Shown here: positions 12,050 through 32,000 of the stretch, in pieces
Numbering within the stretch: position 1 is the first letter of the stretch
Layout of the letters: each line of letters opens with the position of its first letter
Origin: Nostoc punctiforme PCC 73102
Lineage (GTDB): Bacteria; Cyanobacteriota; Cyanobacteriia; Cyanobacteriales; Nostocaceae
Reading direction: 5' to 3'
Length of the DNA: 32,000 nucleotides
Assembly: GCF_000020025.1 (NCBI RefSeq)
Contig: NC_010631.1
Coordinates: forward strand, 120,001-152,000
Program-made: the position numbers and the translations under genes
Notes under the pieces: model-generated
Database searches by the model: none
What the model saw: only the letters and a program-made list of their open reading frames with translations
Told to the model about the DNA's origin: nothing

Positions 12050-12071
12050 AATTATAGATATAGGTTGAAAA

Positions 12072-12203
12072 GCGATCGCCACATCTGGTTCAGGTTCGCT
12101 TTGATTTGGTAAAGTAATTGGATCTTGTCCACGAATTACGGCGCGTTCACGAAGTGTCTCCGAATTCGTCAATAGTAAATCGCTTTGGTGTGACAACGTT
12201 CAT
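12072..12203 (-). pseudogene. Internally deleted, frameshifted remnant of a Uma2-family endonuclease gene
   Basis: The minus strand reads ATGAACGTTGTCACACCAAAGCGATTTACTATTGAC (MNVVTPKRFTID), identical to the start of the intact gene at 27477..28064. A stop follows, then a second frame gives ...SEPEPDVAIA. Homology ends at the HIP1 site 12072..12079. Confidence 0.8.
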
Positions 12204-12295
12204 GAGACATCACCAATTTAACTGTTATGTAGTTTCCAGCTTACCATCTGTATTTATTGGCTTTTGCCCATTTTGCAACTTGCACTGTGTATCTA

Positions 12296-12326
12296 GTTTG
12301 CATATCCTTGGGCAGGTGAGAGATAT
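12296..12326 (+). promoter_or_regulatory. Shared promoter-like motif, copy 2 (upstream of TPR-CHAT 12368)
   Basis: gtttgcatatcct-tgggcaggt-gagagatat. It ends 41 nt before the ATG at 12368. Confidence 0.55.
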
Positions 12327-12367
12327 CTCTCTTTAAACTCCCTGCATTACTCCTGACTCTAAAATAT

Positions 12368-15300: not shown

Positions 15301-15580
15301 CGTGTTAAGCGCTTGTGACACCGGACGCGGAAGGATTTCTGGGGATGGGGTAATTGGTTTATCTCGTTCCTTAATTAGTGCTGGTGTCCCCAGCGTCTTA
15401 GTATCGCTGTGGTCGGTTCCAGATACGCCTACAGCACTATTAATGACGGAATTTTATCAAAATCTTCAAAAGAGCCAAGACAAAGCGCAAGCACTGCGAC
15501 AGGCGATGCTGACGACGATGAAAATTAATCCGAATCCCGTTGATTGGGCAGCTTTTACTCTCATTGGCGAAGCTGAGTAG
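12368..15580 (+). CDS. TPR-repeat + CHAT protease (1070 aa) with N-terminal leader
   Basis: Starts ATGCGCGATCGC (MRDRKLSLTTLITLILSV...QVLAQT). It has a long, internally divergent TPR array. The CHAT motifs are HLATHG and LSACDTG, and it ends WAAFTLIGEAE. Confidence 0.93.
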   Translation: MRDRKLSLTTLITLILSVSQPIANLPPLFQASQVLAQTPANRKAEADRLLQQGIEQLQSSQFEAALESWQKALMIYRDIQDRHGEASALINLGTIYLYFNNNTKAIEYFEQSLAIAKENKYYNAQIAALGSLGEIYNSLGDYKKTIEYHLSRLEVTRKIKNRLAEKDTLQDLAEAYLAMQNYPQAIEALENYLVISQKLKDREGEKYALGSLGIYYYSSGNHAKAIEYYRQPLAMEFYQQKLITARKNKNRQVEASAIGIIAIVYDALGDNTKAIEYYEERIKIARELKDKENEGHYLANLGYAYLKVNHYSKAVESAQKGLEIARELKNFQKQAVCLRVLGESYSGLNDNKQANYYYQQLLALSQDKKDIPDEIEILSSLSITYRELGYYTQAIEFAQRHLLIARKLNDKIQQAEALTNLGAVYNDLGNYIQAIEYHKESLKIAQEIKSITHEANSLGELGIAYFDINDYVKALDYYQQFLAIAQKLKDKQNEGIALSELGLVYDQIDDHKKAINYYQLSLAIARELKETLLEANTLMNLGRAYISLGNYTKAIEYTQQGLFLSKKINYPLGKGFGSTNLGLALYRTGKLAEAEKVLVDGIQVWESLRSGLGNNDIHKVSIFDKQASIYPILQQVLIAQNKNDEALEIAERGRSRALLDLLNSRLSNNNSTQSFQLNFQQPTLSLLQQIAKQQKATLIEYSIIADNFKIQGKQVTYESELYIWVIKPAGEVTFRKADLKPLWQKENSTLGNLVITSRNSIGATSTPFRGAVDVVGKPNAPKAKNNLKRLHELLINPIADLLPKNSNDHVIFIPQSSLFLVPFAALQDADGKYLIEKHTILTSPSIQVLDLTHKQKQRTGTKPIEGKDTLIVGNPMMPFLAPKIGETPQQLISLPGAELEANAISKLLKTEPLIGNKATEATIVKRLPQARFIHLATHGIFDDIQGLNSGIALTPSGKEDGLLTASEILDLKLNAELVVLSACDTGRGRISGDGVIGLSRSLISAGVPSVLVSLWSVPDTPTALLMTEFYQNLQKSQDKAQALRQAMLTTMKINPNPVDWAAFTLIGEAE

Positions 15581-15620
15581 GTTTTTAAAGTTATCTCGTA
15601 ACCTGAAAAGTGCTGTACTA

Positions 15621-15651
15621 TTTTGCATAACCTCACACAACCCAGAAATAC
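15621..15651 (+). promoter_or_regulatory. Shared promoter-like motif, copy 4 (upstream of the orthocaspase gene)
   Basis: ttttgcataacct-cacacaacc-cagaaatac. It ends 46 nt before the ATG at 15698. Confidence 0.5.
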
Positions 15652-15697
15652 AATCCTTTAAAGCGATTTGTGCCAATAAATAATAAATAAAATCATA

Positions 15698-17989
15698 ATG
15701 TCTAACATCAAACGCCGTCATTTTCTCCAATTTTCTGCTTCCACTCTCGCAATGTTAGGCTTGAGCCAGTTCGACATCATGCAACAAGCCAACAGCGTAG
15801 GTAAAGTCCTCGCTCAAAGTACAGGCCGCAAACTAGCGCTACTAGTGGGTATTAATGATTATCCTGCAAGCAATGGTTTAGATCCTCTCAAAGGTTGTGA
15901 GAATGATGTCAAATTGCAGGAATACTTACTAATTCACCGCTTTGGCTTCAAACAAGAGGATATTCGCATTTTGCTTAACCAACAAGCCACCCGTCAAGGC
16001 ATCCTCACAGCTTTTGAAAACCATCTAATTGCTCAAGCCAAGCGTGGGGATGTGGTATTATTCCACTACTCTGGACACGGTTCCCAGGTACAAGACCCCG
16101 ATCGCGATTCACCGGATGGACTCAACAGCACGCTTGTTCCTATAGATAGCCCTTTACCAACAGGATTTCCAGCCTTCGGCGGTGCAGTAAAAGATATCAT
16201 GGGACATACGCTATTTTTACTCATGTCTGCGTTAAAAACAGATAACGTCACCTTTGTGCTTGACAGCTGTTTTTCTGGTGGTGGTACGCGGGGAAATCTG
16301 CGGGTGCGATCGCGTTCTGGCGGTGAAAAATTGCAACCTAGTCAAGAAGAATTAGACTATCAGCGTCAATGGCTAAATAAATTGGGGCTTTCACAACAAG
16401 AATTCATTCAAAAACGCCGTCAAAACGTTGCTAAAGGAGTCGTTATCACCAGCGCCAAACGCGATCAATACGCCGCCGATGTTCCTTTTTCGGGTTTCCA
16501 TGCAGGGGCGTTTACCTACTCGCTAACTCAGTATCTTTGGCAGCAAACTGGCAATGAATCTGTCAACAGAGCGATCGCTAATATTGGTCGCAGTACGAAA
16601 GAATTAGCTAGCGAAAATGGTAACGATCAAGACCCAGAATTTGAGTCGAACCTCAGCGAAGAAAATGCCAACACACCTATCTATTTCATCCCTGTCCAGG
16701 CTATCCCAGCTGAGGCTGTAGTCACGCAAGTAACAGAGAACCAAGCACAGTTATGGCTGGGTGGAATAGATTCGCAAAGCTTAGAAGCTTTCAACAGTAA
16801 CTCTGTATTCTCAATAGTGGATGGTCTGGGTAATGAAATCGGACAGGTGCAACTACAATCTCGTCAAGGATTAGTCGGCAGAGGTACGCTGAAATACACA
16901 ACCTCCAAGGGAAAATTACACCCAGGAAATTTATTGCAAGAACGCATCCGCATCATTCCTAGAAATGCAACTTTAAAAATTGGTATTGATGAATCTTTAG
17001 ACAACAAAACTGCCCAGCAGGCAATACAAGCGATGAAAGCACTCAAGCGCGTCGAACCCAAATCTTTAACAAAAGAAGAATTACAATATATCTTTGGGCA
17101 GATGACAAAGACCAAACATCAAGAGTTGCAGAAAAAAGGAGTATCCAAGCTGCCAGTAGTGGGTAGTTTTGGTTTATTTTTACCAAGTCAAGACCAAATT
17201 ATTCCTGCGTCTTTTGGTGCAGCTAGCGAACCCATAACTGAAGCAGTAAAGCGTTTACAACCAAAATTCAAGTCGCTGTTAGCTGCGAGAGTGATCAAAC
17301 AGATTCTGGGAAATACAAATTCATCACGCCTCAACGTCACAGTTTCTATGAATATTGCTGGTAGCAATGAGCTTTTGGCTGAAACTTTCCCGATTCGCGG
17401 TGTAGCTAAAAAACCTCAACAGCCAAATTCCTCAACACCAGTTTCGTCTATTAAGTTTTCTGATGCTGGGTTACGTCAACTACCTGTGGACACCCAGATT
17501 GCTTTCCAAATTAAAAATAATGAGTCTCAACCACTTTACGTCAGTATTTTAGTGATTGATGCCGAAGGCGAAATGACAATTATTTTTCCTAATAAATGGT
17601 CAGACTCAGAAAATGCTGCTTTGGTAGAGGCAAAACAAACACAGTTAATCCCTCAAGCTGATGATGAATTTACACTTACCATAGTTACGCCCTTGGGAGT
17701 TTCAGAAGCATTAATCATTGCCAGTACCACCCCGCTAAAAACTGCTCTCCAAGCATTACAAACAATTGCTAGTAGGTCAACAGACACAAAAAGTCGAAAT
17801 GTTCCTCTCCCTGTTACTAATGAACTGTTAGATGTCACCAATAATTTACTAGATGACTTAGATGCAGGTACTCGTAGCGGCAATAGCGTCAATAACATAC
17901 AATTACCATCGAGCGATCGCGGTGTTGATACTACAAAATTAGCTGCAATGGCGATCGCTTTTGAGGTAATTGCATCATCCAGCAGCTAA
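15698..17989 (+). CDS. Orthocaspase / peptidase C14-like protease with twin-arginine (Tat) signal and a C-terminal DUF4384-like domain
   Basis: The N-terminus KRRHFLQFSASTLAMLGL matches the Tat pattern RR.FL. The caspase fold is indicated by LALLVGINDY, HYSGHG (His codon 16076..16078) and LDSCFSGG (Cys codon 16268..16270). The C-terminal block ...IAFQIKNNESQPLYVSILVIDAEGEMTIIFPN resembles DUF4384. Confidence 0.88.
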   Translation: MSNIKRRHFLQFSASTLAMLGLSQFDIMQQANSVGKVLAQSTGRKLALLVGINDYPASNGLDPLKGCENDVKLQEYLLIHRFGFKQEDIRILLNQQATRQGILTAFENHLIAQAKRGDVVLFHYSGHGSQVQDPDRDSPDGLNSTLVPIDSPLPTGFPAFGGAVKDIMGHTLFLLMSALKTDNVTFVLDSCFSGGGTRGNLRVRSRSGGEKLQPSQEELDYQRQWLNKLGLSQQEFIQKRRQNVAKGVVITSAKRDQYAADVPFSGFHAGAFTYSLTQYLWQQTGNESVNRAIANIGRSTKELASENGNDQDPEFESNLSEENANTPIYFIPVQAIPAEAVVTQVTENQAQLWLGGIDSQSLEAFNSNSVFSIVDGLGNEIGQVQLQSRQGLVGRGTLKYTTSKGKLHPGNLLQERIRIIPRNATLKIGIDESLDNKTAQQAIQAMKALKRVEPKSLTKEELQYIFGQMTKTKHQELQKKGVSKLPVVGSFGLFLPSQDQIIPASFGAASEPITEAVKRLQPKFKSLLAARVIKQILGNTNSSRLNVTVSMNIAGSNELLAETFPIRGVAKKPQQPNSSTPVSSIKFSDAGLRQLPVDTQIAFQIKNNESQPLYVSILVIDAEGEMTIIFPNKWSDSENAALVEAKQTQLIPQADDEFTLTIVTPLGVSEALIIASTTPLKTALQALQTIASRSTDTKSRNVPLPVTNELLDVTNNLLDDLDAGTRSGNSVNNIQLPSSDRGVDTTKLAAMAIAFEVIASSSS

Positions 17990-18341
17990 CTCTTGTATGT
18001 TTGGCGTGGATAAATTTGTGATTTTAAGAAGATTTTGGACAGGTTGTCCAAGTTTACCTTCCAAAAACGTCCAAAAAATAACATAAAGGAAAGCTAAATA
18101 AACAACATATTTATAAAAATGTAATTTACGCCTGATGTGAATTAAAAACATCTCTCATACCATAAGGGTTGCTAGATTCGCTCCAAATCATTATTTTGGG
18201 ACTAACTACGAAATTACAAGGGTTTCAAGACTTAATTTACATTAAACGTAATTTATTTAATTACACTAATCTGGTGGCTGGTGTTTATCCTTTCAATCAG
18301 GATCTAAAAGTAGTAAACGTCGATTAGGAGAACCGACAAGC

Positions 18342-19550
18342 GTGGCAAGAAACTGGAAGTGTGATGGTCAGCCCAAAAATGGCAAAATCTACTTAAATCA
18401 AAATCCTACTGGCAACCACGAACCCTATGAAAATTACGGCTTAACCTGTGTAATATGTAATTTGCCAAAAGAGGCAATGGACAATAACCGTCAATTGCCA
18501 AAATGGGTCAAACCTGCTGCTATAACTGGTGGTGCTGTTTTAACTGTCCTTATTGCTGCCTCAATATTTATAGATAAACCTTGTCCAACAGGTCAGCAAA
18601 AAATCAATAGTATTTGTTTGGCACTTTCTCCGCCTGAGAAAGAAACTCCTACCAAGCCAGTCTCTGATCCTCCCGTTAATATCTACCACACTTTAGCTGA
18701 AGTGCCTAACGTTCCCAACGGAATCATTAGATACGGCGGTTCTACAAGCTTTGCGCCGCTAAGGACTTCAGCAATAGTAGCGCTGATTATGCAAGGTCAT
18801 CCGGGATTTAAATTAGTCTACACTTCGCCACCGCCAGGAACCCAGGCTGGGTCTGGTAGCGGGATCAAGATGCTGATAGAAGGTCAACTAAATTTTTCCC
18901 AGTCTTCGCGGCCCTTAAGAGACGAAGAGTATGAAAGCGCAAAAACACGCAATTTCACTCTGGAACAGCAACCTATTGCCATTGACGGAATTGCTTTTTA
19001 CGTTCATCGTGATTTGGCTATCCCAGGTTTAACGGTATCTCAGATTAAGGATATATACACTGGGAGAATCACGAACTGGAAGCAAGTGGGTGGCCCCGCT
19101 ATTGAAATTACGCCTTTGAGCCGTGACCCTAATGATGGTGGTACTCCTGAATACTTTCAAGAAAAAGTGTTGGCGAAGGAACCATTTGCTTCATCTGTAA
19201 AACCTTATGTAATAGACACTACAACTGCTATCCGAAAGGTAGCTCAAACTCCTGGCGGGATTAGTTATGCCACTGCTTCAGAAGTTTGCCCCCAAACTTC
19301 AATTAAGCCTTTGTCAATTGCAAAACAGGCTAATCAGGGTTTTGTACCTGCTTGCATCGAAAAGCTCGTGAATAAAAATGATTTTGCGAAAGACATCTAC
19401 CCTCTGACTAGACGACTGTTTGTTGTGATTAAACGCGAACGCGATCGCACGCTGGATGAGCAGGCTGGTGTAGCTTATGTCAACTTACTTTTAAGTGATG
19501 AAGGTCAAAAATTAGTAGACCAAGCTGGTCTAGTGCCAATTCGCAACTGA
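18342..19550 (+). CDS. PstS-like (type 2 periplasmic binding protein) domain protein with a Cys-containing N-terminal tail and a single TM anchor
   Basis: GTG start 10 nt after AGGAGA (18326..18331). The TM segment is AAITGGAVLTVLIAASIFI. PstS-family blocks are IRYGGSTSFAPL, FSQSSRPLRDEE, IAIDGIAFYVH and LTVSQIKDIYTGRITNWKQVGG. No pstCAB genes are adjacent. Confidence 0.8.
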   Translation: MARNWKCDGQPKNGKIYLNQNPTGNHEPYENYGLTCVICNLPKEAMDNNRQLPKWVKPAAITGGAVLTVLIAASIFIDKPCPTGQQKINSICLALSPPEKETPTKPVSDPPVNIYHTLAEVPNVPNGIIRYGGSTSFAPLRTSAIVALIMQGHPGFKLVYTSPPPGTQAGSGSGIKMLIEGQLNFSQSSRPLRDEEYESAKTRNFTLEQQPIAIDGIAFYVHRDLAIPGLTVSQIKDIYTGRITNWKQVGGPAIEITPLSRDPNDGGTPEYFQEKVLAKEPFASSVKPYVIDTTTAIRKVAQTPGGISYATASEVCPQTSIKPLSIAKQANQGFVPACIEKLVNKNDFAKDIYPLTRRLFVVIKRERDRTLDEQAGVAYVNLLLSDEGQKLVDQAGLVPIRN

Positions 19551-19578
19551 AATAAATAATAACTCCTTAAAATCCCAG

Positions 19579-20475
19579 ATGAGTAAATTTCGTCGCAGTT
19601 TCTGGCTATATCCTTTATTTCAGATTCCGTTAATCGTGTTTGGAGTTTGTTTAGTTGCGACTGTTTTGTGTTCACTTTTAGGGTTGGGTAGACCTAGTGT
19701 AGCAGTAGCGATCGCTCTGGATATGAGCAACAGCACCTACGAAGGTAAATCATTCAACGCACCTGATACTGTGATGGCTCAAGAAGTGGCGGCGGTGCGA
19801 TCGTATATTGAGCAAAACTCCCAGCAATTAAAATCTCCTAACAATATCCAAATTTTTGGGTTTGGCGATCGAGTCATTCCCTTAACTAATTCCTTCACAT
19901 CAGATAGACAAAAGTTAGAAGCTGAGTTGAATTTAGCTCTAGCAAACCCTAATTTGTCATCTCAGATTGGTACTGAAACAAATCTCAGTCAATCCATTGA
20001 TCAAGGTACAAAACTTCTCAGTAATATTCAAGATCGTTGCCGTGAATTATTGCTCGTCACTGATGGAGTCGCTGAGGTGATACCATCAGTTTTGACTCAG
20101 GCAGTAGCTCAAAAAGTCAAAATCAATGCTGTGGTGGTAGGAGCAAATGCTCCCCAAATCAAGTCAGCTACCGACATCACCAACGGAATTTATCTATCCG
20201 GTGAATCGAACAATCTGCAAATATTTTTTAAAGATATATTTTTTACTAGCTTTAATAGCAATGTCAAATGGGTTTATTTCTGGCGAGGTTGTACCTGGAT
20301 TGCTTTGATGTGGCTAATTATCTTGCCTTTAGATAAATGGGTTTTTCAAGGGTTAATTAACTTACCAATGAACCTTAGTGGTCAGTTAGCTTTAGGCAAT
20401 GCTTTATTTTGGACTGTTGTTACTCCCCTAATTCTTTGGCAATTATCTGGCTTACCTTTTTTCTCAAATTGTTGA
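19579..20475 (+). CDS. Membrane protein with von Willebrand factor A (vWA) domain
   Basis: N-terminal TM after KFRR. The MIDAS motif DMSNS is at 19720..19734, followed by GTETNL and LLVTDG. Two or three C-terminal hydrophobic helices follow. It starts 28 bp after the preceding gene. Confidence 0.8.
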   Translation: MSKFRRSFWLYPLFQIPLIVFGVCLVATVLCSLLGLGRPSVAVAIALDMSNSTYEGKSFNAPDTVMAQEVAAVRSYIEQNSQQLKSPNNIQIFGFGDRVIPLTNSFTSDRQKLEAELNLALANPNLSSQIGTETNLSQSIDQGTKLLSNIQDRCRELLLVTDGVAEVIPSVLTQAVAQKVKINAVVVGANAPQIKSATDITNGIYLSGESNNLQIFFKDIFFTSFNSNVKWVYFWRGCTWIALMWLIILPLDKWVFQGLINLPMNLSGQLALGNALFWTVVTPLILWQLSGLPFFSNC

Positions 20476-20570
20476 GGCAGAAAGCAAAAGTTTTGAGTTA
20501 GCCATTAACAAATAATCAAAGGTAAATAAAGCTTCATTTGTTGAAGTTAAAAAATTAAAAAGAGAAAATT

Positions 20571-23500
20571 ATGGCAGCAGTTGAAGAAAAAAGTATGGTT
20601 CCCACGGTGTTGGTGGGTGTGGGTGGTACAGGAACAGAAGTCTTGTCACGGGTAAGAAGATTAATAGAAGAAGCCTATGGCAGTTTGAATAATTTTCCCA
20701 TTATTAGTTTTTTTAGTATTGACACAGATAAAGATTATAAAGTTAGTAATCCAGAGGTAACAGGATCGCCATTAAAGGATCATGAAAAACATTGGGCAAG
20801 TGTCAGTGGTAGAGAAGTCAACGACATTATGTCCAATATGGAAAAGTATCCTTGGATTGAGTCTTGGTTTCCTAGAGAATTAGAGCGCAATATTGGAGCA
20901 TTGGAAGCTGGTGCAGGTCAAATTCGTGCCTGTGGTCGCTTTGCCTTTTTTTATAACTATCACAAGATTAGACAACGGTTTTTTGAAGCGTGCGATCGCG
21001 TCAAAGGTCACGAAAGTTTGATGTTAGAGAAGTACGACATCAGAGTTAGTAGTGGTGGGTTGAATGTTTTCGTCGTTGGCTCAATTTCTGGTGGGACTGG
21101 CAGTGGTATGTTAATTGACATCGGCTACTGCTTACGTAACTGGCTGAAAGGTCAGGGAAGCCCTTTAATTACAGCAATTATCCCAATGCCTAATGCTTTT
21201 GCCAGCATTAATGTAGGCGATCGCGTTCTCGCTAATGGCTACGCTGCTCTGATGGAATTGAGTTACTTTTCTGACTACAGAACTGAGTATATATCTCAAT
21301 TTAGCGCTGGTTTAGTGGATGAGGTTCGCAATAAATTACCTCCCTTTGACTTTACCTATTTAGTTGGCACCAAGAATGGCGAAAGTGAGTTTAATCTCGA
21401 TCAAATTCGAGAAATGATTGCTCAAAACGTTTTTTTGGATCTTACCTCTGATTTTGCTCCACACAAACGCTCTATTCGAGACAACATTAAAGGAGCTTGG
21501 GCGCAGGCCGATCCAGGTGGTAGAGGCTATCCCAAAAACTTCATGAGCTTTGGTCTTTCCACAATTGAAATTCCTATCGCTCAGATTCACAATTCGCTAT
21601 CCAATCGGTTGAGTATGGATTTAGTAAATTGGTGGCTGAATGAGTCGGTGTCACTCCCACCTAATGTTTTGGATTTAATCCAAAAAGATATTCTTAAGGG
21701 AATGCGACTGACAGAAACCGAATTGATTGCAGACCTCTCTTCGGCAGCAGATAAATCTTATATCTCAGAAGTATCTGGTTGGATTAATAGTATCCGTAAT
21801 GAAATCGCTAGCGATAATAAATTGCAATGTACCCATCAAGGTGTCAATATGATTGGTACAGAGCGAGGCAAAATTTTGAGATTCCTGGATGATTATCTCA
21901 TCCCCAAAGTTGATGAATATCGTGCCAATCACTTGCGAGAATTAAGCGCCGATGAACGAACACATGGTGACTTTCTCCAAAAAATGTACGATAACCGGGA
22001 TCGCATTATCCAACAAGGCAGACAAGCAATTGAGGCAGAGTTTTACAAGATTATGCGCGATCGCAATCTGGGCCCCAAATTTGCTGATGCTTTTATTACT
22101 AACGTCCGTCAGCTATTTGCCAATGCTTCAGAAAAGTTCCGCCGTGAATCAGAAAAAGTCTGGCAACCTAACGAAATTAATCGGCAGCAGCAGTATGAAG
22201 CCGCACTGCAAGATATTAATCAATTTAAAAACTTGTTTGGTCTAACTAAACAAGCCCAAATGGAAAAGTATTGCGAGGAAGCGCTTACAGGTTTAGAAAG
22301 TAGCTTTATTGCAATCATTCAACACAAAAGTCGCACTTTGTCTCTACAGGTGATTGAGCGAATTTTAGAGCATCTGGATCGTATGGAGCAGCGATTAGCG
22401 CGGTTTAATCAAAAGCTGCGACAACTACGCGATGACTTTAAACAAAAAGCTGACAAAGAAGCAGATAGTGCTGATGCTTTGAAAATTAACGGGTTTAAGC
22501 TTTATAACCGCGAAGAACTTAATCTACTTTATCAGGACATGATTGAGCAATTAGCGGGAGCCATTCAAGGTAGCAAAAGCCGCTATGAAATCGGACTAAA
22601 CCAGATTTGCACCACAATGTCGGAAGATATTTTGCGAGATGCTAGCCCTTTGTGGAAACAGACTCGCACTGCCGGGGAAGTGATGCAACTCTTTGATATT
22701 ACTCAACTACAAGAGGTGAATTACGAGGATTTTAAAGAAATAGTTGCCGTCAAAACTCAGTTAGTAGTGAAAAAATCTCCTCAAGAGAGCCGATTAAACC
22801 AAGATTTAGCAGCGTGCGATCGCCTTTTCAAAAGCTTGCAAAACGATCCAGAGGCAATTCGCAGTAACATCCGCATTGCTTATCAAAGATCCCAACCGTT
22901 AATCTTACTATCCCAGGCAGTTCTCTCAGGTGCAGATGCCGGGTTTACTCCCGCCTTAAATACCAAAGTTGCAATCGTGGGAGGTCGCAACAGCAGCGAT
23001 CCCACTGCGATTAAACTAATCCCTTATTTACAAGAAAGAGTGGGAAATGCCGATTCTATCACCCCTCTGGGACAACAAGAACAGCATCGAATTGTGTTTG
23101 TCCAAGAAAAAGGCGGTTTTTCCCTGCGCTGTATAGATGGTATTAGAGAGTTGCGGCAATCTTATCAAGACTGGAAAGGACAATCTATTGAAGCCAAGCG
23201 ATCGCAACTCAGAGGTGAAACCAAAGACCTCCCTGTTCCCGTGCATATTCAAAAAGAACCTCCTTTCTGGGATGTGTTTCCCGAAAACCCCGAAGTTTTT
23301 AAACTAGTAGTGCAAGCTAGAGCATTAGGTGTTTTGCGGCTAGAAGAAAATCGCAACACCGAAGAAAAGGTGATTCGCTACACCCGCGAAACTGTAATCG
23401 GCTCAGAGAATGTAGAAATTGCTTCTAGTTGGGAAGAAGCGGTGCAAGTATTAGAGGTGCTGGCGTGTCGCCCTGACAAAGAAGCAATTGGGCGTCAAGT

Positions 23501-23897
23501 GTCGGCAAAACTAGCCGATGCTGACCAAGCCCAAGACAAACTAGACTTGTACGACCAGTTCATAAACTATTTGAAGCAGCGAGAAGCAGAACTAGAAAAA
23601 ATTGGGGGTAGCGATAGCCCAGATTACAAACGCGAAGCCACAATTATTAAAGATTTAATCACTTCTGAGAACCTGCAACTAAATAATAAAAGCAAACCCC
23701 CAGTTATTCAGCTTGTAATTTCTCCTGAGAAGCCGCTAGTTGATCTTATTGAGGAGCCTCACATATCAAATATTTCCCCTGTTGAGCCTCCTTTTATGGC
23801 AGGTGCAAATGTTTTTTGTACCGAGTGTGGTGAGCAAAACCCGGCCCGGTCTAAATTTTGCTACAACTGCGGGACTCGATTAGTTAAACTTAATTGA
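20571..23897 (+). CDS. Tubulin/FtsZ-superfamily-like GTPase (Tubulin_2-type) with long helical extension and C-terminal zinc ribbon
   Basis: The T1-like loop GVGGTGT is at 20616..20636. The tubulin signature GGTGSG is at 21090..21107. The remaining roughly 750 aa are rich in charged, coiled-coil-like sequence. The C-terminus has CTEC-x10-CYNC (23818..23871). An alternative start at the ATG at 20595 is possible. Confidence 0.75.
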   Translation: MAAVEEKSMVPTVLVGVGGTGTEVLSRVRRLIEEAYGSLNNFPIISFFSIDTDKDYKVSNPEVTGSPLKDHEKHWASVSGREVNDIMSNMEKYPWIESWFPRELERNIGALEAGAGQIRACGRFAFFYNYHKIRQRFFEACDRVKGHESLMLEKYDIRVSSGGLNVFVVGSISGGTGSGMLIDIGYCLRNWLKGQGSPLITAIIPMPNAFASINVGDRVLANGYAALMELSYFSDYRTEYISQFSAGLVDEVRNKLPPFDFTYLVGTKNGESEFNLDQIREMIAQNVFLDLTSDFAPHKRSIRDNIKGAWAQADPGGRGYPKNFMSFGLSTIEIPIAQIHNSLSNRLSMDLVNWWLNESVSLPPNVLDLIQKDILKGMRLTETELIADLSSAADKSYISEVSGWINSIRNEIASDNKLQCTHQGVNMIGTERGKILRFLDDYLIPKVDEYRANHLRELSADERTHGDFLQKMYDNRDRIIQQGRQAIEAEFYKIMRDRNLGPKFADAFITNVRQLFANASEKFRRESEKVWQPNEINRQQQYEAALQDINQFKNLFGLTKQAQMEKYCEEALTGLESSFIAIIQHKSRTLSLQVIERILEHLDRMEQRLARFNQKLRQLRDDFKQKADKEADSADALKINGFKLYNREELNLLYQDMIEQLAGAIQGSKSRYEIGLNQICTTMSEDILRDASPLWKQTRTAGEVMQLFDITQLQEVNYEDFKEIVAVKTQLVVKKSPQESRLNQDLAACDRLFKSLQNDPEAIRSNIRIAYQRSQPLILLSQAVLSGADAGFTPALNTKVAIVGGRNSSDPTAIKLIPYLQERVGNADSITPLGQQEQHRIVFVQEKGGFSLRCIDGIRELRQSYQDWKGQSIEAKRSQLRGETKDLPVPVHIQKEPPFWDVFPENPEVFKLVVQARALGVLRLEENRNTEEKVIRYTRETVIGSENVEIASSWEEAVQVLEVLACRPDKEAIGRQVSAKLADADQAQDKLDLYDQFINYLKQREAELEKIGGSDSPDYKREATIIKDLITSENLQLNNKSKPPVIQLVISPEKPLVDLIEEPHISNISPVEPPFMAGANVFCTECGEQNPARSKFCYNCGTRLVKLN

Positions 23898-24152: not shown

Positions 24153-25558
24153 TCAGTTAAAGCTAAAAAGCTGATTATTAATGTGAAATTTCGGAGCTTG
24201 TACTTGTTTTCCAGTACTTCTGTGTTTAGGCTTTTTAGAAGAAAACTTTGATACAGGTTTTTTCACAACCCTGGGGTTAGTACGGTGAACTCGTTTCGGT
24301 AACAACGTATCCAGATCTCTACGGTTAACCAATCGAAAAAAGGGGGAATTCTTCTGGTGGTAAATGTTGAAATTTAGGAATAGCACGACAATGACTCGTA
24401 ATGTTCCTGTAAAACTTAGACGCAACGGAGACAGAAGCATTAGTTGCTGCTTGAAATATTAACACTCAAACTGACCAATGTCCCAACAACCAACCATACA
24501 CTTCTTGTACAACTTCTCGTAGTTTTTGGGAACGGACATGGGTTTTTCGACCCAAAAGATGGATTTTCAATTCATCACTGGTATTTTCTACTTCCCAACG
24601 TTGATGATATTCCTCAGCTAACAACTCTGCCGGGAATTTTTCAATGTCTAACAGGCTAGTAATCAAGCGATATATCACTTGTTTTTCTGGGTTATCAGGA
24701 TGCTCAATTATGTACTCGATAACTCTTACTGATATTGGCTGACAATCCTTTTTTCGTAACTTTCCAGATGGGTAAATCGATGACAGATAAGAACCATCTG
24801 GCAACGATTTTTCTGTAAAAAATTTAACATTGGCAGGAATTCTCCCTAAATAGTCACAACCCTTAGATACTGTTGCGTGTACCATTGCATACGAATGCAA
24901 TCCCCTATCCCACATCAACAACATTCCTGATGTTACCGAGCGTAATAATTTTAATGCCCGCACTCGTTCTCCGATGCGGTATGGACACTCTTATTGCATC
25001 AAATATGATGTGTGTTCCTGCTTCTACCAATATGACTAATCTGACTTTGGGAAAAGCTGCTTGTGTGCCTGGACGACTACCAGGACGACCAAAAACTCTC
25101 GCATTTTCATGACTATCTGGAACATCAAAACAAGTACCGTCAATCACCACAATTCTCAGCCCATTTAGAAATGCTCCTATCGTTTCACCAGTCGCCATTG
25201 GTTGTACTAACTGGTGAAATAATTGGCTCATCACTCCTGCTCCCAATCTTGCCGAGCTTGAGTAATTGCTGACTTACAAGGTACTCGCCAGTATTTACCT
25301 ACCTTCACCCATCCCTCAGAAAGACCATCAATCAAGTTTTTAAGTATATCCCACATTGAGTCTTTTGACCATAGACTCATTGCAATTACCAGACTTACCA
25401 CTAATTGCGCTGGTAGCGGGAAGCGAAGCTATGCCGCAGGCTTATCGCTTGCGCTCCTCTTCAGTTTGGGTATTAGTGATCGCTTCTTCGATTGCAGTTG
25501 CTGGAATCGCCATCTCGATTGCTTTAAGCACATCACCACTTCGTATCTCAGGAGACAT
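24153..25558 (-). pseudogene. IS4-family DDE transposase broken by frameshifts and in-frame stops
   Basis: Pieces lie in different frames. They are MSPEIRSGD...EERKR*, LPAQLVVSLVIAMSLW..., RLGAGVMSQ..VIDGTCFDVPDS.., MRALKLL..LLMWDRG..YHQRWEVENTSDELK (the Y-2-R-3-E-6-K signature), HWSV*(TGA)VLIFQAA.. and SPLRLSFTG..NPRVVKK. Confidence 0.85.
25409..25450. repeat. Short GC-rich dispersed repeat, copy inside the IS transposase gene
   Basis: gctggtagcgggaagcgaagctatgccgcaggcttatcgctt resembles 28391..28433. It supplies stop codons in the transposase reading frames. Confidence 0.6.
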
Positions 25559-26442: not shown

Positions 26443-27464
26443 ATGGGCTACCGTCTGAAGTACCTCATCCTTGCTACTGTAGGGCTTTCCTTTGCCCCCT
26501 TGTCTCCTCTTTCTCCCGTCTCTTTGTCTCCCTTGGTGGTGCAGGCGCAAACGACACAACAGCCTAGTCCTGAAGAAACAAACAGGGAGAAGGAACAACC
26601 CTCAACAATATTGGCTTTGTTTACAATAATCAAGGACAGTATGCCAAAGCTTTGGTAGCTTATCAGCAAGCTTTAGCTATTCGCAAACAAATCAATCAAA
26701 AAGCATTGGTAGGAGAAAGCCTCAATAACATTGGCTCTGTTTACGAAAATTTGGGACAGTACGATCAAGCATTGAAGTTTTATCAGCAAGCTTTAACTAT
26801 TCTCCAACAAATTGGCAGCAAGGTAGGTGAAGGAAAAACTCTGAACAATATTGGCTTTGTTTACAATAATCAAGGACAGTATGCCAAAGCTTTAAATTAC
26901 TATGTACAAGCTTTAACTATTCTTCAAAAAATTGGTGACAAAGCAGGTGGAGGTAAAACTCTCGATAATATCGGTGTGGTTTATGACAACCAGAGAGATT
27001 ATGCCAAAGCATTCGGATTTCATCAGCAAGCTTTAGCCATTTTCAAACAAATTGGTGATACAGCAGGTGAAGGCAAAACTCTTAATAATATTGGTGGGGT
27101 TTATTATAATCAGAAAGAGTATGCCAAAGCTTTGGAATTTTATCAGGAAGCTTTAGTTATTGTCAAACAAGTCGGTGATAAAGCGTCGGAAGGAACATTT
27201 CTCAATAATATTGGTTCTGCTTACGATAAATTAGGACAATATGAAAATGCTGAAAAAACGCTATTTACTGCAATTGAGATTTGGGAGTCTTTGCGAAAGA
27301 ACGAATTAACTGATGCTCAAAAAATTTCACTCTTTGAAATACAAGCCGAAACCTACCGTTTTCTGCAAAGGAGTCTGATTGCCCAGAATAAAATTAATTC
27401 TGCCTTAGAAGTGAGCGATCGCCTCATTCCCCAAACCAAACATCGTAGGCGCAGCCTGTCGTAG
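26443..27464 (+). pseudogene. Frameshifted, 3'-truncated paralogue of the TPR-CHAT gene at 1..1707 (leader + TPR only, CHAT lost)
   Basis: The ATG at 26443 follows GGAG. The leader MGYRLKYLILATVGLSFA...VVQAQT is in frame 1. The TPR frame opens only after the TGA at 26571 (track ORF 26652..27464). Nucleotide homology to 1..534 stops at the HIP1 site 27415..27422, inside ...ALEVSDR, where the paralogue continues into CHAT. Confidence 0.65.
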
Positions 27465-27476
27465 ACATTGCTGTTT

Positions 27477-28064
27477 CTAAGCACTAACAACCGTAGGAAA
27501 AATCCGGCTCAAGTCTAATAAGACATCTTCAAATCCAGGAATTGCCACTGACTGATGGGGCAAAGATATCTGCTTGCTGAGATAATTATATTCACCTTGA
27601 GCAGTTTGATAAGGTTGGCTGTAACGCTCAAGTTGGCGAAAATTTAAGTTGACAATCCAATAATTAGAAATTCCGGCTTCTGCGTAGACTTCTAACTTTG
27701 TTGTTTGGTCGTAATCGAGGGTTGAATCGGAAATTTCAATCACTAAAAAAATATCTTCAGGATAGGGATGATGGGGAAGATAGTCAGTCTCATTTCCTCG
27801 TGCGATCGCCACATCTGGTTCAGGTTCACTATCTGATGGTAGTATGATTGGCTCTTGACAACGCACAACAGCGCCATCGCCCAGCAATCGATCCAGTTGT
27901 CTACAAAGCCGAGTTGTGCAAAATGTATGAGGTGTGCCTTTGGCTACCATCTGAATGAGTTCTCCGCGAATCAATTCAATGCGATCATTCTCCTTTAGAA
28001 ATTCCAGTTCAATCAGTCGATGATATTCATCAATAGTAAATCGCTTTGGTGTGACAACGTTCAT
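27477..28064 (-). CDS. Uma2-family (DUF820) restriction-endonuclease-fold protein
   Basis: The 195-aa ORF MNVVTPKRFTIDEYHRLIE...ELIRGELI.M...EPEPDVAI...LVIEISDST...D...K...YA..GI..YWIV is typical of the family that is expanded in cyanobacteria. Confidence 0.88.
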   Translation of the reverse strand: MNVVTPKRFTIDEYHRLIELEFLKENDRIELIRGELIQMVAKGTPHTFCTTRLCRQLDRLLGDGAVVRCQEPIILPSDSEPEPDVAIARGNETDYLPHHPYPEDIFLVIEISDSTLDYDQTTKLEVYAEAGISNYWIVNLNFRQLERYSQPYQTAQGEYNYLSKQISLPHQSVAIPGFEDVLLDLSRIFPTVVSA

Positions 28065-28536: not shown

Positions 28537-31500
28537 ATGGGCGATCGCAAACTTAGTTTAACCGTATTGATCACTCTCATCTTGACTGTTTCACAACCCA
28601 TCGCCAATTTGCCTCCACTATTCCAAGCGCCGCAGGTATTGGCGCAAACGCCAGCAGAACGGAAAGTAGAAGCAGACCGATTGTCGCAGCAAGGTCTTGA
28701 GCAGTTTAAAATTAGCCAATTTGAAGCCGCGTTACAGTCTTGGCAACAAGCACTTATTATTTATCGAGAAATCAAAGACCGTAAAGGAGAGGGAAAAACT
28801 CTAGGCCGTCTGGGAGTTATTTACGACTACCGGGGAGACTATACCAAAGCCATTCAGTACCAGCAGCAGAGTTTGGCGATCGCCAAGGAAACTAAAGACC
28901 GTTTAGGGGAAGGAAAAGCTCTGGTCAATCTGGGAAATGTTTACCATTCCCTGGGAGACTACGCTAAAGCCATTGAGTATCACTCCTCAAGTTTTACGAT
29001 CGCTCGTGAAATCAATGACCGTTCAATTGAGGGTGCTGCTCTGGGCAATCTGGGACTTGCTTACGATGCAAAAGGAGACTACGCCAAAGCCATTGAGTAC
29101 CACTCTTTAAGTTTGGCGATCGCTCGTGAAATCAAAGACCGTAAAGGAGAGGGAGAATCTCTGGGCAATTTGGGAATTGCTTACGATGCCCTGGGAGATT
29201 ACGCTAAAGCCATTGAGTACCAGCAGCAGAGATTGGCGATCGCTCGTGAAATCAAAGACCGTAAAGGGGAGGGAGAATCTCTGGGAAATCTGGGAAGTGC
29301 TTACTATTCGCTGGGAGACTACGCCAAAGCGATTAAGTACCAGCAGCAGAGATTGGCGATCGCTCGTGAAATTAAAGACCGCCGAGCACAGAAACAATCT
29401 CTGGGCAATCTAGGAGTTGCTTACAATGCTCTGGGAGACTACGCCAAAGCGATTAAGTACCAGGAGCAGAGTTTGGCGATCGCTCGTGAAATCAAAGATC
29501 GTAATGGCGAGGGTAATGCTCTGGACAATCTGGGACTTGCTTACTATTCGCTGGGAGACTACGCCAAAGCCATTGAATACTACTCCTCAAGTTTGGCAAT
29601 TGCACGAGAAATCAAAGACCGTAATGGCGAGGGTACTGTTCTGGGGAATCTGGGACTTGCTTACTTTTTGTTGGGAGACGACCTGAAGGCGATTGAGTAC
29701 CAGGAGCAGAGTTTGGCAATTGCACGAGAAATCAAAGACCGTAATGGTGAGAGTCAATCTCTGGGCAATCTAGGACTTGCTTACGATGATCTGGGAGACT
29801 ACGCCAAAGCGATTGAGTACTACCAGCAAAGTTTAGCGATCGCTCGTGAAATCAAAAACCGTTTAGGCGAGGGACAATCTCTGGGCAATCTAGGAAATGT
29901 TTACTATTCGCTGGGAGACTACGCCAAAGCGATTGAGTACTACCAGCAAAGATTGGCGCTCGCCCGCCAAATCAAAAACCGTTTAGGCGAGGGGAATGGT
30001 CTGAGCAATCTAGGAAATGCTTACGGTTCGCTGGGAGACTACGCCAAAGCGATTGAGTACCAGCAGCAAAGTTTAGCGATCGCACGAGAAATCAAAGACC
30101 GTTTAGGTGAGGGGAATGTTCTGGGGAATCTAGGATTTACTTTAAACAAATCTGGCAATCTTGCAGAAGCAGAAAAAAACCTCCGGGCTGGGATAGAGGT
30201 CTGGGAATCTGTCAGGAGACAGTTGGGTAAAAATGATAGCTACAAAGTCTCAATTTTTGAACGACAATCTCGCACTTACCGCATACTACAAAGAGTCCTA
30301 ATTGCTCAGAATAAAACCAAAGAAGCGTTAGAAATTTCTGAACGGGGACGTTCTAGGGCATTTGTGGAGTTATTAACTTCACGGTTGTCTAGCGAAAGTG
30401 CAGGTCAAACTGTAGAACGTCCTGTTGATAAACCGACAATATCGCTGTTGCAACAAATCGCCAAACAACAAAATGCCACCCTCGTTGAATATTCAACTAT
30501 TGGTGATGAATTCAAGATTCAAGGTAAACAAGAACAAAAAGAATCAGAACTCTACATTTGGGTAATCAAACCCACAGGTGAAGTTACCTTCCGCTCTTCT
30601 GACCTCAAACCCCTGTGGCAAAAAGAAAATACAACTCTTGACAAGCTTGTTACTACCAGTCGTAACTTCATTGGTGCAACAAGTACACCTTTTCGCGGTG
30701 GTATTATCCCCAGGGAAAATCCTAATAAACCCAAAGCCAAACAAAAATTTCAGCAACTCCATAAACTGCTGATTGAACCTATCGCTGACTTGCTTCCAAA
30801 ACAAGAAACTGAAAAAGTTATCTTCATTCCCCAAAGCAGCCTATTCCTCGTTCCCTTCGCCGCATTACAAGACGCAGACGGCAAATACCTGATTGAAAAA
30901 CACACCATCCTCACATCTCCATCAATTCAGGTTTTAGATTTAACCCACAAACAGAAACAACGGCTTGGAACAAAACCCATAGAAGGAAAAGATACGCTGA
31001 TTGTAGGTAATCCCACAATGCCTTTTCTCGCCCCAAAAATCGGCGATACTCCGCAACAATTAAAACCTTTACTTGGCGCAGAACTTGAAGCAGTTGCAAT
31101 TAGCAAGTTACTCAAAACCGAACCTCTCATCGGCAAGAAAGCCACAGAAGAAACTATAGTCAAGCGTTTACCCGAAGCGCGATTTGTTCATTTAGCAACA
31201 CATGGTTTATTTGATGATATCCAAGGATTAAATAGTGGCATTGCTTTGACTCCATCGGGTAAAGATGATGGTTTATTAACAGCCTCGGAAATCCTCGATC
31301 TGAAGCTAAATGCCGAATTAGTCGTTTTAAGCGCTTGCGACACCGGACGCGGACGCATTTCTGGGGATGGGGTAATTGGTTTATCTCGTTCGTTAATTAG
31401 TGCTGGTGTACCCAGTGTCTTAGTATCGCTGTGGTCGATTCCAGATGCGCCCACAGCCCTATTAATGACGGAATTTTATCAAAATCTGCAAAAAGGCTCC

Positions 31501-31602
31501 GACAAAGCGCAAGCACTGCGACAGGCAATGCTGAAAACCATTCAGAAATATCCTCAACCCAAATATTGGGCAGCTTTTACTCTCATTGGCGAAGCTGAGT
31601 AA
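28537..31602 (+). CDS. TPR-repeat + CHAT protease with N-terminal leader (paralogue of 12368..15580)
   Basis: I place the start at the ATG at 28537 (MGDRKLSLTVLITLILTV...QVLAQT) by homology with the starts at 12368 and 31682, not at the track's TTG at 28444. The TPR array is extremely regular. The CHAT motifs are HLATHG and LSACDTG. Confidence 0.92.
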   Translation: MGDRKLSLTVLITLILTVSQPIANLPPLFQAPQVLAQTPAERKVEADRLSQQGLEQFKISQFEAALQSWQQALIIYREIKDRKGEGKTLGRLGVIYDYRGDYTKAIQYQQQSLAIAKETKDRLGEGKALVNLGNVYHSLGDYAKAIEYHSSSFTIAREINDRSIEGAALGNLGLAYDAKGDYAKAIEYHSLSLAIAREIKDRKGEGESLGNLGIAYDALGDYAKAIEYQQQRLAIAREIKDRKGEGESLGNLGSAYYSLGDYAKAIKYQQQRLAIAREIKDRRAQKQSLGNLGVAYNALGDYAKAIKYQEQSLAIAREIKDRNGEGNALDNLGLAYYSLGDYAKAIEYYSSSLAIAREIKDRNGEGTVLGNLGLAYFLLGDDLKAIEYQEQSLAIAREIKDRNGESQSLGNLGLAYDDLGDYAKAIEYYQQSLAIAREIKNRLGEGQSLGNLGNVYYSLGDYAKAIEYYQQRLALARQIKNRLGEGNGLSNLGNAYGSLGDYAKAIEYQQQSLAIAREIKDRLGEGNVLGNLGFTLNKSGNLAEAEKNLRAGIEVWESVRRQLGKNDSYKVSIFERQSRTYRILQRVLIAQNKTKEALEISERGRSRAFVELLTSRLSSESAGQTVERPVDKPTISLLQQIAKQQNATLVEYSTIGDEFKIQGKQEQKESELYIWVIKPTGEVTFRSSDLKPLWQKENTTLDKLVTTSRNFIGATSTPFRGGIIPRENPNKPKAKQKFQQLHKLLIEPIADLLPKQETEKVIFIPQSSLFLVPFAALQDADGKYLIEKHTILTSPSIQVLDLTHKQKQRLGTKPIEGKDTLIVGNPTMPFLAPKIGDTPQQLKPLLGAELEAVAISKLLKTEPLIGKKATEETIVKRLPEARFVHLATHGLFDDIQGLNSGIALTPSGKDDGLLTASEILDLKLNAELVVLSACDTGRGRISGDGVIGLSRSLISAGVPSVLVSLWSIPDAPTALLMTEFYQNLQKGSDKAQALRQAMLKTIQKYPQPKYWAAFTLIGEAE
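28765..30084 (+). repeat. Eleven tandem, exactly 120-bp (40-aa) near-identical TPR units, each carrying or nearly carrying a HIP1 site
   Basis: The unit is REIKDR.GEG..LGNLG.AY..LGDYAKAIEY.QQSLAIA. Unit 1 starts at 28765 and unit 12 (degenerate) starts at 30085, which equals 28765 + 11 x 120. Confidence 0.9.
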
Positions 31603-31681: not shown

Positions 31682-32000
31682 ATGCGCGATCGCAAACTTA
31701 GTTTAACCGCATTGATCACTCTCATCTTGACTGTTTCACTGCCGATTACAAATTTGCCTCCACTATTCCAAGCGTCGCAAGTATTAGCGCAAACACCAGC
31801 AGACCGCAAAGCTGAAGCTGACCGACTTTTAAATCAAGGTTTCGAGCAGCTTCAAACGAGTCAATTTACAGCAGCATTAGAGTCTGGGCAACAGGCACTA
31901 ATTATCTATCGAGAAATCAAAGACCGTCAAGGTGAGGGGCGTACTTTAATTTTTCAAGGTGCTGCTCATCTTAGTCTGGGAGACAAAGCTCGTGCGATCA
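31682..32000 (+). CDS. Third tandem TPR(-CHAT) paralogue, 3' end beyond the window (not in the ORF track)
   Basis: Starts ATGCGCGATCGCAAACTTAGTTTAACC. The translation is MRDRKLSLTALITLILTVSLPITNLPPLFQASQVLAQTPADRKAEADRLLNQG...YREIKDRQGEG. The frame is open to the last base. Confidence 0.85.
   Translation, partial: MRDRKLSLTALITLILTVSLPITNLPPLFQASQVLAQTPADRKAEADRLLNQGFEQLQTSQFTAALESGQQALIIYREIKDRQGEGRTLIFQGAAHLSLGDKARAI

Follow-up and report, generated by a model that had tools for sequence, protein, structure and literature searches.

How does a run of tandem repeats come to be exact in length and yet variable at a few positions of its unit, and what might such a run recognise? The question is raised by a gene of Nostoc punctiforme PCC 73102 that lies in a 32,000-nucleotide stretch (contig NC_010631.1, positions 120,001 to 152,000; here the window) and encodes an N-terminal leader, an array of tetratricopeptide repeats (TPRs) and a CHAT caspase-like protease domain. 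We regard it as moderately probable that this array forms the ligand-binding solenoid within a probably exported TPR-CHAT protease, evolves by the copying of units and serves in the recognition of variable proteins.

Variable positions of the repeat unit

The array comprises 11 units of exactly 120 bp, in frame and with zero indels across 28765..30084, as an initial annotation of the locus had described them, and the unit scaffold REIKDR.GEG..LGNLG.AY..LGDYAKAIEY...SLAIA is present. The cassettes are exact in length, but not in sequence: pairwise identity averages 77% at the nucleotide level (range 64–91%) and 70% at the amino-acid level (best pair 90%), and synonymous divergence (dS) among units is 0.49, so that the earlier description of the units as almost invariant in nucleotides was overstated. 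Tandem repeats commonly misassemble, and an array of eleven units could be the product of repeat collapse or expansion. Misassembly is unlikely here, however, because exact repeats within the array reach 41 bp at most and no 55-mer occurs twice. At read length no two units are the same, the frame stays open as far as the end of CHAT, and independent assemblies, complete genomes among them, contain orthologues and paralogues with 4–20 such units, which leaves an assembly artefact with very little probability. A higher-order period of 360 bp, suggested by Tandem Repeats Finder (TRF), was rejected, units i and i+3 being about 78% alike against an average of 77%.

By per-position entropy the most variable unit positions are 7, 11, 12, 18, 21 and 22, with variation also at 14 and 33–35, which bears out the earlier remark that changes are concentrated in a few places. 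Along helix A this variability is one-sided, with a helical moment of entropy R of 0.51 in the focal array (permutation p = 0.002) and of 0.49 in 116 other arrays of the family (p = 1e-4); the conserved residues L13, L16, G17 and Y20 lie on the helix A face opposite to the variable stripe. When unit numbering is anchored on the TPR landmarks G8 and Y11, unit positions 11, 14, 15, 18, 21 and 22 become TPR positions 2, 5, 6, 9, 12 and 13, which constitute the hypervariable, ligand-contacting concave face defined by Magliery and Regan (PMC1261162); the TPR groove is lined by helices A (PMC5642895). Falling at unit position 15, and hence at TPR position 6, is a conserved Asn, and this position contacts ligand in the TPRs of HOP (PMC1261162). 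The repeats keep a packing scaffold that is common to the family, and amino-acid change lies mainly on one face of helix A (positions 7, 11, 14, 18, 21 and 22), with an addition in helix B (33–36). The concave ligand face, on which the initial annotation had proposed to look for the variable positions, is where they map, positions 33 and 36 in helix B excepted; these two vary family-wide, and 33–35 are the helix B positions that vary most in the focal array. The consensus REIKDRQGEGAALGNLGNAYYSLGDYAKAIEYHQQSLAIA is common to the 116 arrays (1,166 units), whose variable positions agree with those of the focal array (Spearman 0.74).

The variable positions have a restricted alphabet and are linked, positions 11–12 for example reading 'QS' or 'xA' in the focal array and in homologues P0004–P0033, and signatures such as L-QS-G-(L/I/N)-(Y/D)-S recur across different genomes. 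Such restriction, linkage and recurrence suggest a limited stock of unit types that is shuffled, in place of free hypermutation.

Signs of selection at the concave positions

Selection was gauged by the ratio of non-synonymous to synonymous change (omega), counted along minimum spanning trees of units, with the concave codons chosen a priori. In the focal array omega is 1.2 at concave codons and 0.24 elsewhere (p = 0.17–0.25 for a value above 1), which is indistinguishable from relaxed constraint. At codons 12 and 18 of this array five different residues are encoded apiece, and the third position shows zero diversity. The pooled sample contains 93 arrays from 77 loci plus the window, tiered by within-array nucleotide identity. 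In the 22 arrays at or above 85% identity omega at concave codons is 2.30 (p about 1e-34; 0.42 elsewhere), in the 23 arrays at 78–85% it is 1.56 (0.38 elsewhere), and in the 48 arrays below 78% it is 0.98 (0.38 elsewhere), the last value being consistent with saturation. Within the most homogeneous tier, per-position omega exceeds 2 at positions 11, 18, 21, 22, 33 and 36; over the whole sample, omega is above 1 at concave positions in 70% of arrays. Diversity at the first and second positions of concave codons surpasses that at the third positions of other codons. The non-synonymous excess expected by the initial annotation is not significant in the focal array and emerges only on pooling of the more homogeneous arrays. 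Of the diversifying receptor proposed there, the concave-face variation stands, signs of selection are seen in the pooled homogeneous arrays and not significantly in the focal one, and the receptor function of the focal protein is something that we infer.

These values also bear on a rival explanation, in which the protein is a housekeeping or developmental protease and its array a means of recruiting substrates of the cell's own, on the model of HetF and PatU3 in Anabaena. The variable sites would then be weakly constrained surface residues and the homogeneity a by-product of tandem-repeat recombination, without adaptive diversification. Such a role is compatible with the non-significant focal omega, with the value of 0.98 in the 48 least homogeneous arrays, and with the restricted alphabet and recurrent signatures of the variable positions (L-QS-G-x-Y-S, for instance); HetF itself, the only characterised cyanobacterial CHAT protease, is reported to act on a developmental substrate (PMC9457339). 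The elevated concave omega of the two most homogeneous tiers, shared in its excess over 1 by the majority of arrays, argues against it, as do the many paralogues per genome, the rapid turnover of arrays, the exchange of modules, and the fusion of the same array type to NB-ARC, TIR and SIR2, which are typical of conflict systems. We hold a housekeeping role to be rather unlikely.

A second rival would make the array mainly a structural spacer or ruler, a consensus solenoid optimised for stability in which unit number sets a distance, for example across the periplasm, and sequence differences between units are irrelevant. The family consensus is indeed near-identical to that of the designed consensus TPRs (CTPRs), which supply the best PDB sequence match (E = 2e-98) and which it resembles in the form EGxALGNLGNAYYSLGDYAKAIEYHQQSL, and unit number ranges from 4 to 20 among homologues. 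The variation is nevertheless placed on one helix face at ligand positions and not over the whole exposed surface, in homogeneous arrays these positions have an omega above 1, and Asn 15 is conserved at a ligand-contact position, all of which render a mere spacer improbable.

Concerted evolution of the units

Where two focal units share a residue, the identity of the codons used for it is 0.75; against the two other TPR arrays of the window it is 0.39–0.40, and the between-array median of the family is 0.51. Because arrays of the same window share synonymous codons only at 0.39–0.40, codon usage does not explain the sharing within the array, and the difference indicates concerted evolution of the focal units. 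Tracts common to units are longer than the permutation expectation in a GENECONV-style analysis (p = 0.0005 at the site level and 0.012 at the codon level), a result to which the clustering of slowly evolving codons could contribute.

Upstream of the focal gene is a Uma2-family gene, which adjoins TPR-CHAT genes in three other genomes (85–91% nucleotide identity) and, as a conserved neighbour, identifies these as positional orthologues (Table 1). Unit counts at this syntenic locus are 11 (focal), 10, 8 and at least 8, so unit number varies across relatives, and no unit-by-unit collinearity with the focal array was found in the three orthologues or in seven other close homologues. Units of the Nostoc sp. 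P2037 orthologue L074 are 86.5% identical in nucleotides among themselves and 78% identical to focal units. No conspecific relative of the focal protein was found in the protein database, the best non-self match being about 78% identical by BLASTP (about 80% in a MAFFT alignment), and a cluster look-up returned solely an alternative-start version of the same gene. The initial view that the array is homogenised internally is borne out by codon sharing and by the changes of unit number and collinearity among orthologues; units are duplicated, lost and converted, the outcome being a varying unit number and no orthology of units across species.

Mosaic history of the gene

An in-genome paralogue of 1070 amino acids (12368..15580) resembles the focal gene in its leader and CHAT. 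Its leader, once described as near-identical, is similar but less close than that (87.6% nucleotide identity). The CHAT half had been judged about nine-tenths identical by eye, and the segment given as an example, 14880..15580 against 30900..31602, proves to be 90.0% identical across 700 bp, ungapped; over the whole C-terminal 1.48 kb the figure is 81.7%. The TPR arrays of the two genes yield only local matches of 51–147 bp at 65–84% (56% nucleotide identity in a codon alignment), in agreement with the earlier statement that the paralogue's array is irregular and cannot be aligned as DNA, and the arrays of the two paralogues in the window are saturated at synonymous sites.

Comparison by segment separates the histories of the modules. 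Between the focal gene and the in-genome paralogue, dS is 0.22 in the leader, saturated in the array, 1.04 in the linker and 0.33 in CHAT; against L074 the corresponding values are 0.30, 0.47, 0.45 and 1.78, against L024 they are 0.46, saturated, 0.81 and 0.41, and against L005 they are 0.49, 1.81, 0.64 and 0.45. The leader and CHAT of the focal gene are thus closest to the in-genome paralogue, and its array and linker are closest to L074; because dS differs from segment to segment, the modules have different histories. The pattern describes a mosaic gene, in which leader, array plus linker, and CHAT recombine among many paralogues, the arrays turning over fastest. The leaders and CHATs of the two paralogues in the window look homogenised with each other. 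The CHAT of L074 is strongly divergent from the focal one (dS 1.78, 70% nucleotide identity) beside a leader, array and linker at dS 0.30–0.47, which indicates replacement of the CHAT module in at least one lineage. For what had been called conservation of the protease module, exchange between paralogues or gene conversion among them is the better reading.

Base composition and HIP1 sites

GC content at third codon positions (GC3) is 0.48 in the focal array, 0.20 in the array of the paralogue and 0.27–0.39 in other genes of the window. In a set of 94 arrays, higher within-array identity goes with higher GC3 (Spearman 0.68; 0.62 when HIP1 codons are left out). Either GC-biased gene conversion or an AT-biased decay of ageing arrays could produce this link. 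Once conversion ceases, an array seems to drift towards AT.

The HIP1 octamer occurs in the LAIA codons of seven of the eleven focal units (Table 1), as had been noted for most units. Family-wide, 38% of 762 units have it at the unit boundary, and in 11 arrays no unit lacks it; the window as a whole holds 34 sites against 0.2 expected. In each of the three paralogues a HIP1 site also overlaps codons 2–4 (G/R-D-R; sites at 12372, 28541 and 31686).

Architecture of the TPR-CHAT protein

The start of the gene was placed at 28537, and not at the upstream TTG (28444) chosen by the program that listed open reading frames, because orthologues start at the corresponding M(R/G)DRKLSL and P0001, the copy of the protein in the database, has 1021 residues. 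Residue numbers in the analyses are counted from 28540 and equal the true number minus one. An AlphaFold2 model of the protein (predicted local distance difference test, pLDDT, 81) consists over the array of regular 17–18-residue helix pairs, and Pfam assigns TPR_12 (429 bits, cut-off 30.1) and TPR_10 (210 bits). In Foldseek and phmmer searches the array matches the TPR domains of LGN/Pins at 32–36% identity, gap-free over 189 residues. On this evidence the array is assigned to the TPR solenoids, in the 40-residue LGN/Pins-like class, and CHAT is a predicted His-Cys protease. Pfam and NCBIfam scans of the focal protein found no nucleoside triphosphatase (NTPase) domain of the NACHT or NB-ARC type.

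At the N terminus the model contains a helix at residues 4–17 within a region of low confidence (residues 1–35, pLDDT below 50). Of 120 homologues, 103 have a hydrophobic N terminus and 65 have VLAQT. The leader probably acts as a signal peptide or as a signal anchor, and owing to this hydrophobic segment the protein is probably exported or membrane-anchored, with its TPR-CHAT part outside the cytoplasm.

Table 1 Features of the focal gene, its paralogues in the window and its positional orthologues. Coordinates are those of the window, except for L074.
Feature	Coordinates	Strand	Remarks
Uma2-family gene upstream of focal gene	27477..28064	-	Synteny anchor for positional orthology
Leader-TPR-CHAT gene, complete	28537..31602	+	1021 amino acids, ATG at 28537
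N-terminal leader	28537..28650	+	Short basic N terminus, 13-residue hydrophobic helix, low-confidence linker
Conserved VLAQT motif	28636..28650	+	End of leader, about 15 residues after the hydrophobic helix
N-terminal capping helix pair of the solenoid	28651..28764	+	AlphaFold2 helices 38-57 and 61-77 (numbering from 28540)
Eleven in-register TPR units (120 bp, 40 residues)	28765..30084	+	Helix A, unit positions 6-22; helix B, 26-2'
Seven HIP1 octamers, GCGATCGC	28876..30083	+	Starts 28876, 29116, 29236, 29356, 29476, 29836, 30076; units 1, 3, 4, 5, 6, 9, 11; LAIA codons
Degenerate 12th unit, C-terminal cap	30085..30204	+	Helix A consensus-like, helix B diverged
Linker from array to CHAT	30205..30747	+	Helical and beta-strand
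CHAT caspase-like protease domain, PF12770	30748..31599	+	257 bits (cut-off 24)
Catalytic His codon	31201..31203	+	Invariant in 36 homologues
Catalytic Cys codon	31336..31338	+	Invariant in 36 homologues
In-genome paralogue	12368..15580	+	1070 amino acids; leader and CHAT resemble focal gene
Degenerate array of the paralogue	about 12593..14044	+	39% amino-acid identity within array, GC3 0.20
Start of third tandem paralogue, MRDRKLSL...	31682..32000	+	Runs past window end
Positional orthologue L074, Nostoc sp. P2037	5995..8943		10 units
Positional orthologue L005, Calothrix brevissima NIES-22			8 units
Positional orthologue L024, Aulosira sp.			At least 8 units

Neighbouring genes

The third paralogue probably corresponds to P0093 (916 amino acids, same contig). 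A motif of the form [VI][LI]AQ[TSV], mostly VLAQT, is found seven times in the six-frame translation of the window (at 1852, 3356, 12467, 15806, 25874, 28636 and 31781, all on the plus strand), each copy 15–25 residues past an N-terminal hydrophobic helix; the proteins concerned are five CHAT proteins, a C14 caspase that also has an RRHFLQF resembling a twin-arginine translocation (Tat) signal, and a small TPR protein. The motif has the look of an export or processing signal common to these proteins; after cleavage at VLA|Q, the product would begin with Gln.

Elsewhere in the window, 3224..9742 (+) encodes a 2172-residue protein with a leader, WD40 repeats (23 stretches by Pfam), TPRs and CHAT. 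Its WD40 units, 123 bp long and 69–83% alike (TRF), follow the same regime of internal conservation with a second type of repeat before CHAT. Flanking the in-genome TPR-CHAT paralogue, within 9884..23897 (+), are genes for an S8 subtilase, a C14 caspase with DUF4384 and a PstS-like binding protein, together with a 298-residue membrane protein and a 1108-residue Tubulin_2 protein with a zinc ribbon; S8 and C14 homologues also stand beside TPR-CHAT genes in L003, L029, L041, L046, L051 and L067. A truncated TPR gene (26652..27464, +) strongly resembles the TPR and linker of the CHAT gene 4..1707 and ends just before the start of CHAT, with a DDE transposase fragment (24466..24963, -) about 1.7 kb upstream. 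It looks like a decaying paralogue and points to birth-and-death turnover in the island.

Family context

The full focal protein has more than 5,575 database matches at E < 1e-50, the best matches listed coming from cyanobacterial genomes, mostly filamentous, or from metagenome contigs, with several paralogues in many genomes. Internal amino-acid identity across homologue arrays spans 0.34–0.87, and the focal array ranks 48 of 94 by nucleotide identity. The locus is typical of its family, with nothing special to one gene, and the family is routinely annotated in databases as 'CHAT domain-containing tetratricopeptide repeat protein'. A search with the array alone found the 40-residue unit fused also to protein kinases (18 of 120) and to NB-ARC, TIR, SIR2 and AAA (among P0127–P0232); fused to so many effector modules, the array type is a widely re-used module of the sensor type. 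The kinase fusions include a cluster of four Ser/Thr kinases on one Candidatus Brocadia contig, and the same search (proteins including P0174) returned a CHAT protein of the coral Porites evermanni fused to a 40-residue consensus array.

Relation to known systems

The closest parallel in evolutionary regime is offered by the WD40, ANK and TPR repeats of fungal NOD-like receptors (NLRs; HET-E/NWD) that are highly internally conserved (HIC; Dyrka et al. 2014, PMC4986451). Common to both are tandem repeats that evolve in concert and vary in number, variability at a few concave-face positions with positive selection (here at the family level), and multicellular or filamentous hosts with many paralogues. 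The focal protein differs in having no NACHT or NB-ARC NTPase, its array being joined directly to CHAT behind an export-type leader, and in units of 40 rather than 42 residues. Internal identity in HIC repeats exceeds 85% over at least 100 residues (PMC4986451), against a focal mean of 70%; relatives lie near or at that value (L074, 86.5% of nucleotides; P0071 and P0083, up to 87% of residues). The combination of scaffold, hypervariable concave face, concerted evolution and repeat-number change is already described for these fungal repeats (PMC4986451), and the repeat regime has also been noted for WD and TPR repeats of bacterial NLRs (Dyrka et al. 2020). We did not find described such a regime in TPR-CHAT proteins that bear a leader and lack an NTPase, the association of array homogeneity with GC3, or HIP1 at unit boundaries. 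CTPRs and the natural, near-identical 42-residue TPR-like repeats (Marold et al. 2015, as cited in PMC5642895 and Dyrka et al. 2020) have nearly the same consensus-like sequence, the natural arrays sharing also a high internal identity, and differ in unit length (34 or 42 residues rather than 40).

For the solenoid itself the nearest structures are LGN (GPSM2)/Pins (PDB 3SF4, 3RO2, 6HC2, 4WND), which share 40-residue units and the motif LGNLGxAY...G(D/N)...A(I/V)..Y/H and were determined as complexes with partner proteins or extended peptides (NuMA, Inscuteable, Frmpd4 and Afadin). LGN is, by contrast, a eukaryotic scaffold of eight divergent repeats without a protease or internal homogenisation, and its mode of ligand binding is carried over to the focal array by homology only.

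In fold searches the whole protein matches separase, DdvA and Csx29. DdvA of Myxococcus xanthus (PDB 8ROT; PMC11506125; Foldseek E = 1.7e-15 over about 990 columns) likewise joins an extracytoplasmic TPR superhelix to CHAT with a His-Cys dyad and is a proposed signal-sensing protease in a defence context, for which the sensing of a phage-associated protein and self-cleavage have been put forward (PMC11506125). It differs in its degenerate repeats, in a cytoplasmic zinc-binding anti-sigma domain and in a paired extracytoplasmic function (ECF) sigma factor; in the focal protein only five residues (MGDRK) stand ahead of the hydrophobic helix, and the subset of window open reading frames that was scanned includes no ECF sigma factor. 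Csx29 of the type III-E Craspase and separase also combine helical repeats with a caspase-like domain, and in both repeat binding gates the protease. They are cytoplasmic, however, their repeats are not homogenised, and Csx29 is tied to Cas7-11; the focal protein scores 18 bits with the Csx29 model NCBIfam NF041237 against a cut-off of 300. The tandem repeats of the window include no array of clustered regularly interspaced short palindromic repeats (CRISPR), and the open reading frames scanned include no cas genes, without a search aimed at cas genes. A defence-system label was considered and rejected, PADLOC giving just generic TPR, caspase and subtilase matches and NCBIfam giving no match above cut-off, with HaaT, AfsR and Csx29 far below it.

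Discussion

In the mechanism that we propose, the groove of the array would bind an extended polypeptide, to whose recognition each unit would add specificity residues. Binding would either present the substrate to CHAT or activate the His-Cys protease allosterically, as in separase and Csx29 and as proposed for DdvA. Variable proteins, of non-self origin or related to conflict, are what a repertoire of many paralogues with fast-turning arrays would most likely recognise in the cell envelope.

Several points weigh against ligand recognition by a diversifying array. The placement of variable positions on the concave face rests on alignment and helical periodicity, not on geometric coordinates, and positions 33 and 36 of helix B vary as well (family omega 2–3), with no one-sided pattern in that helix (R = 0.04). 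At 77% of nucleotides and 70% of residues the homogeneity of the focal array is moderate and below the 85% of highly internally conserved repeats, and omega at its concave codons is not significantly above 1; all omega values are simple counts on recombining repeats and not the output of a recombination-aware codon model. The homologues were chosen by similarity to the focal query, which favours consensus-like arrays, and PADLOC and NCBIfam give the focal protein no defence-system assignment.

A bolder and doubtful extension is that these genes form, in filamentous cyanobacteria, a large repertoire of exported, NTPase-less, caspase-like receptors whose arrays are renewed by cassette shuffling through GC-biased gene conversion, an envelope analogue of fungal NLR repeats. 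The correlation of homogeneity with GC3, the HIP1 palindrome at unit boundaries and the apparent drift of non-converting arrays towards AT would fit it. Taken by itself, the focal locus is unremarkable within a very large cyanobacterial family already annotated in databases. It is a tractable test case all the same: unit positions 7, 11, 14, 18, 21 and 22 are explicit candidates for specificity engineering, and the link between GC3 and homogeneity may offer a measurable trace of gene conversion in the repeats of bacteria. If the proposal is true, the NLR-type logic of a consensus scaffold plus a hypervariable face would reach a simpler fusion of sensor and protease without an NTPase switch, and multicellular cyanobacteria would possess in these genes a repertoire of caspase-like sensors located in the envelope, with a specificity that is re-dealt as repeats are shuffled.

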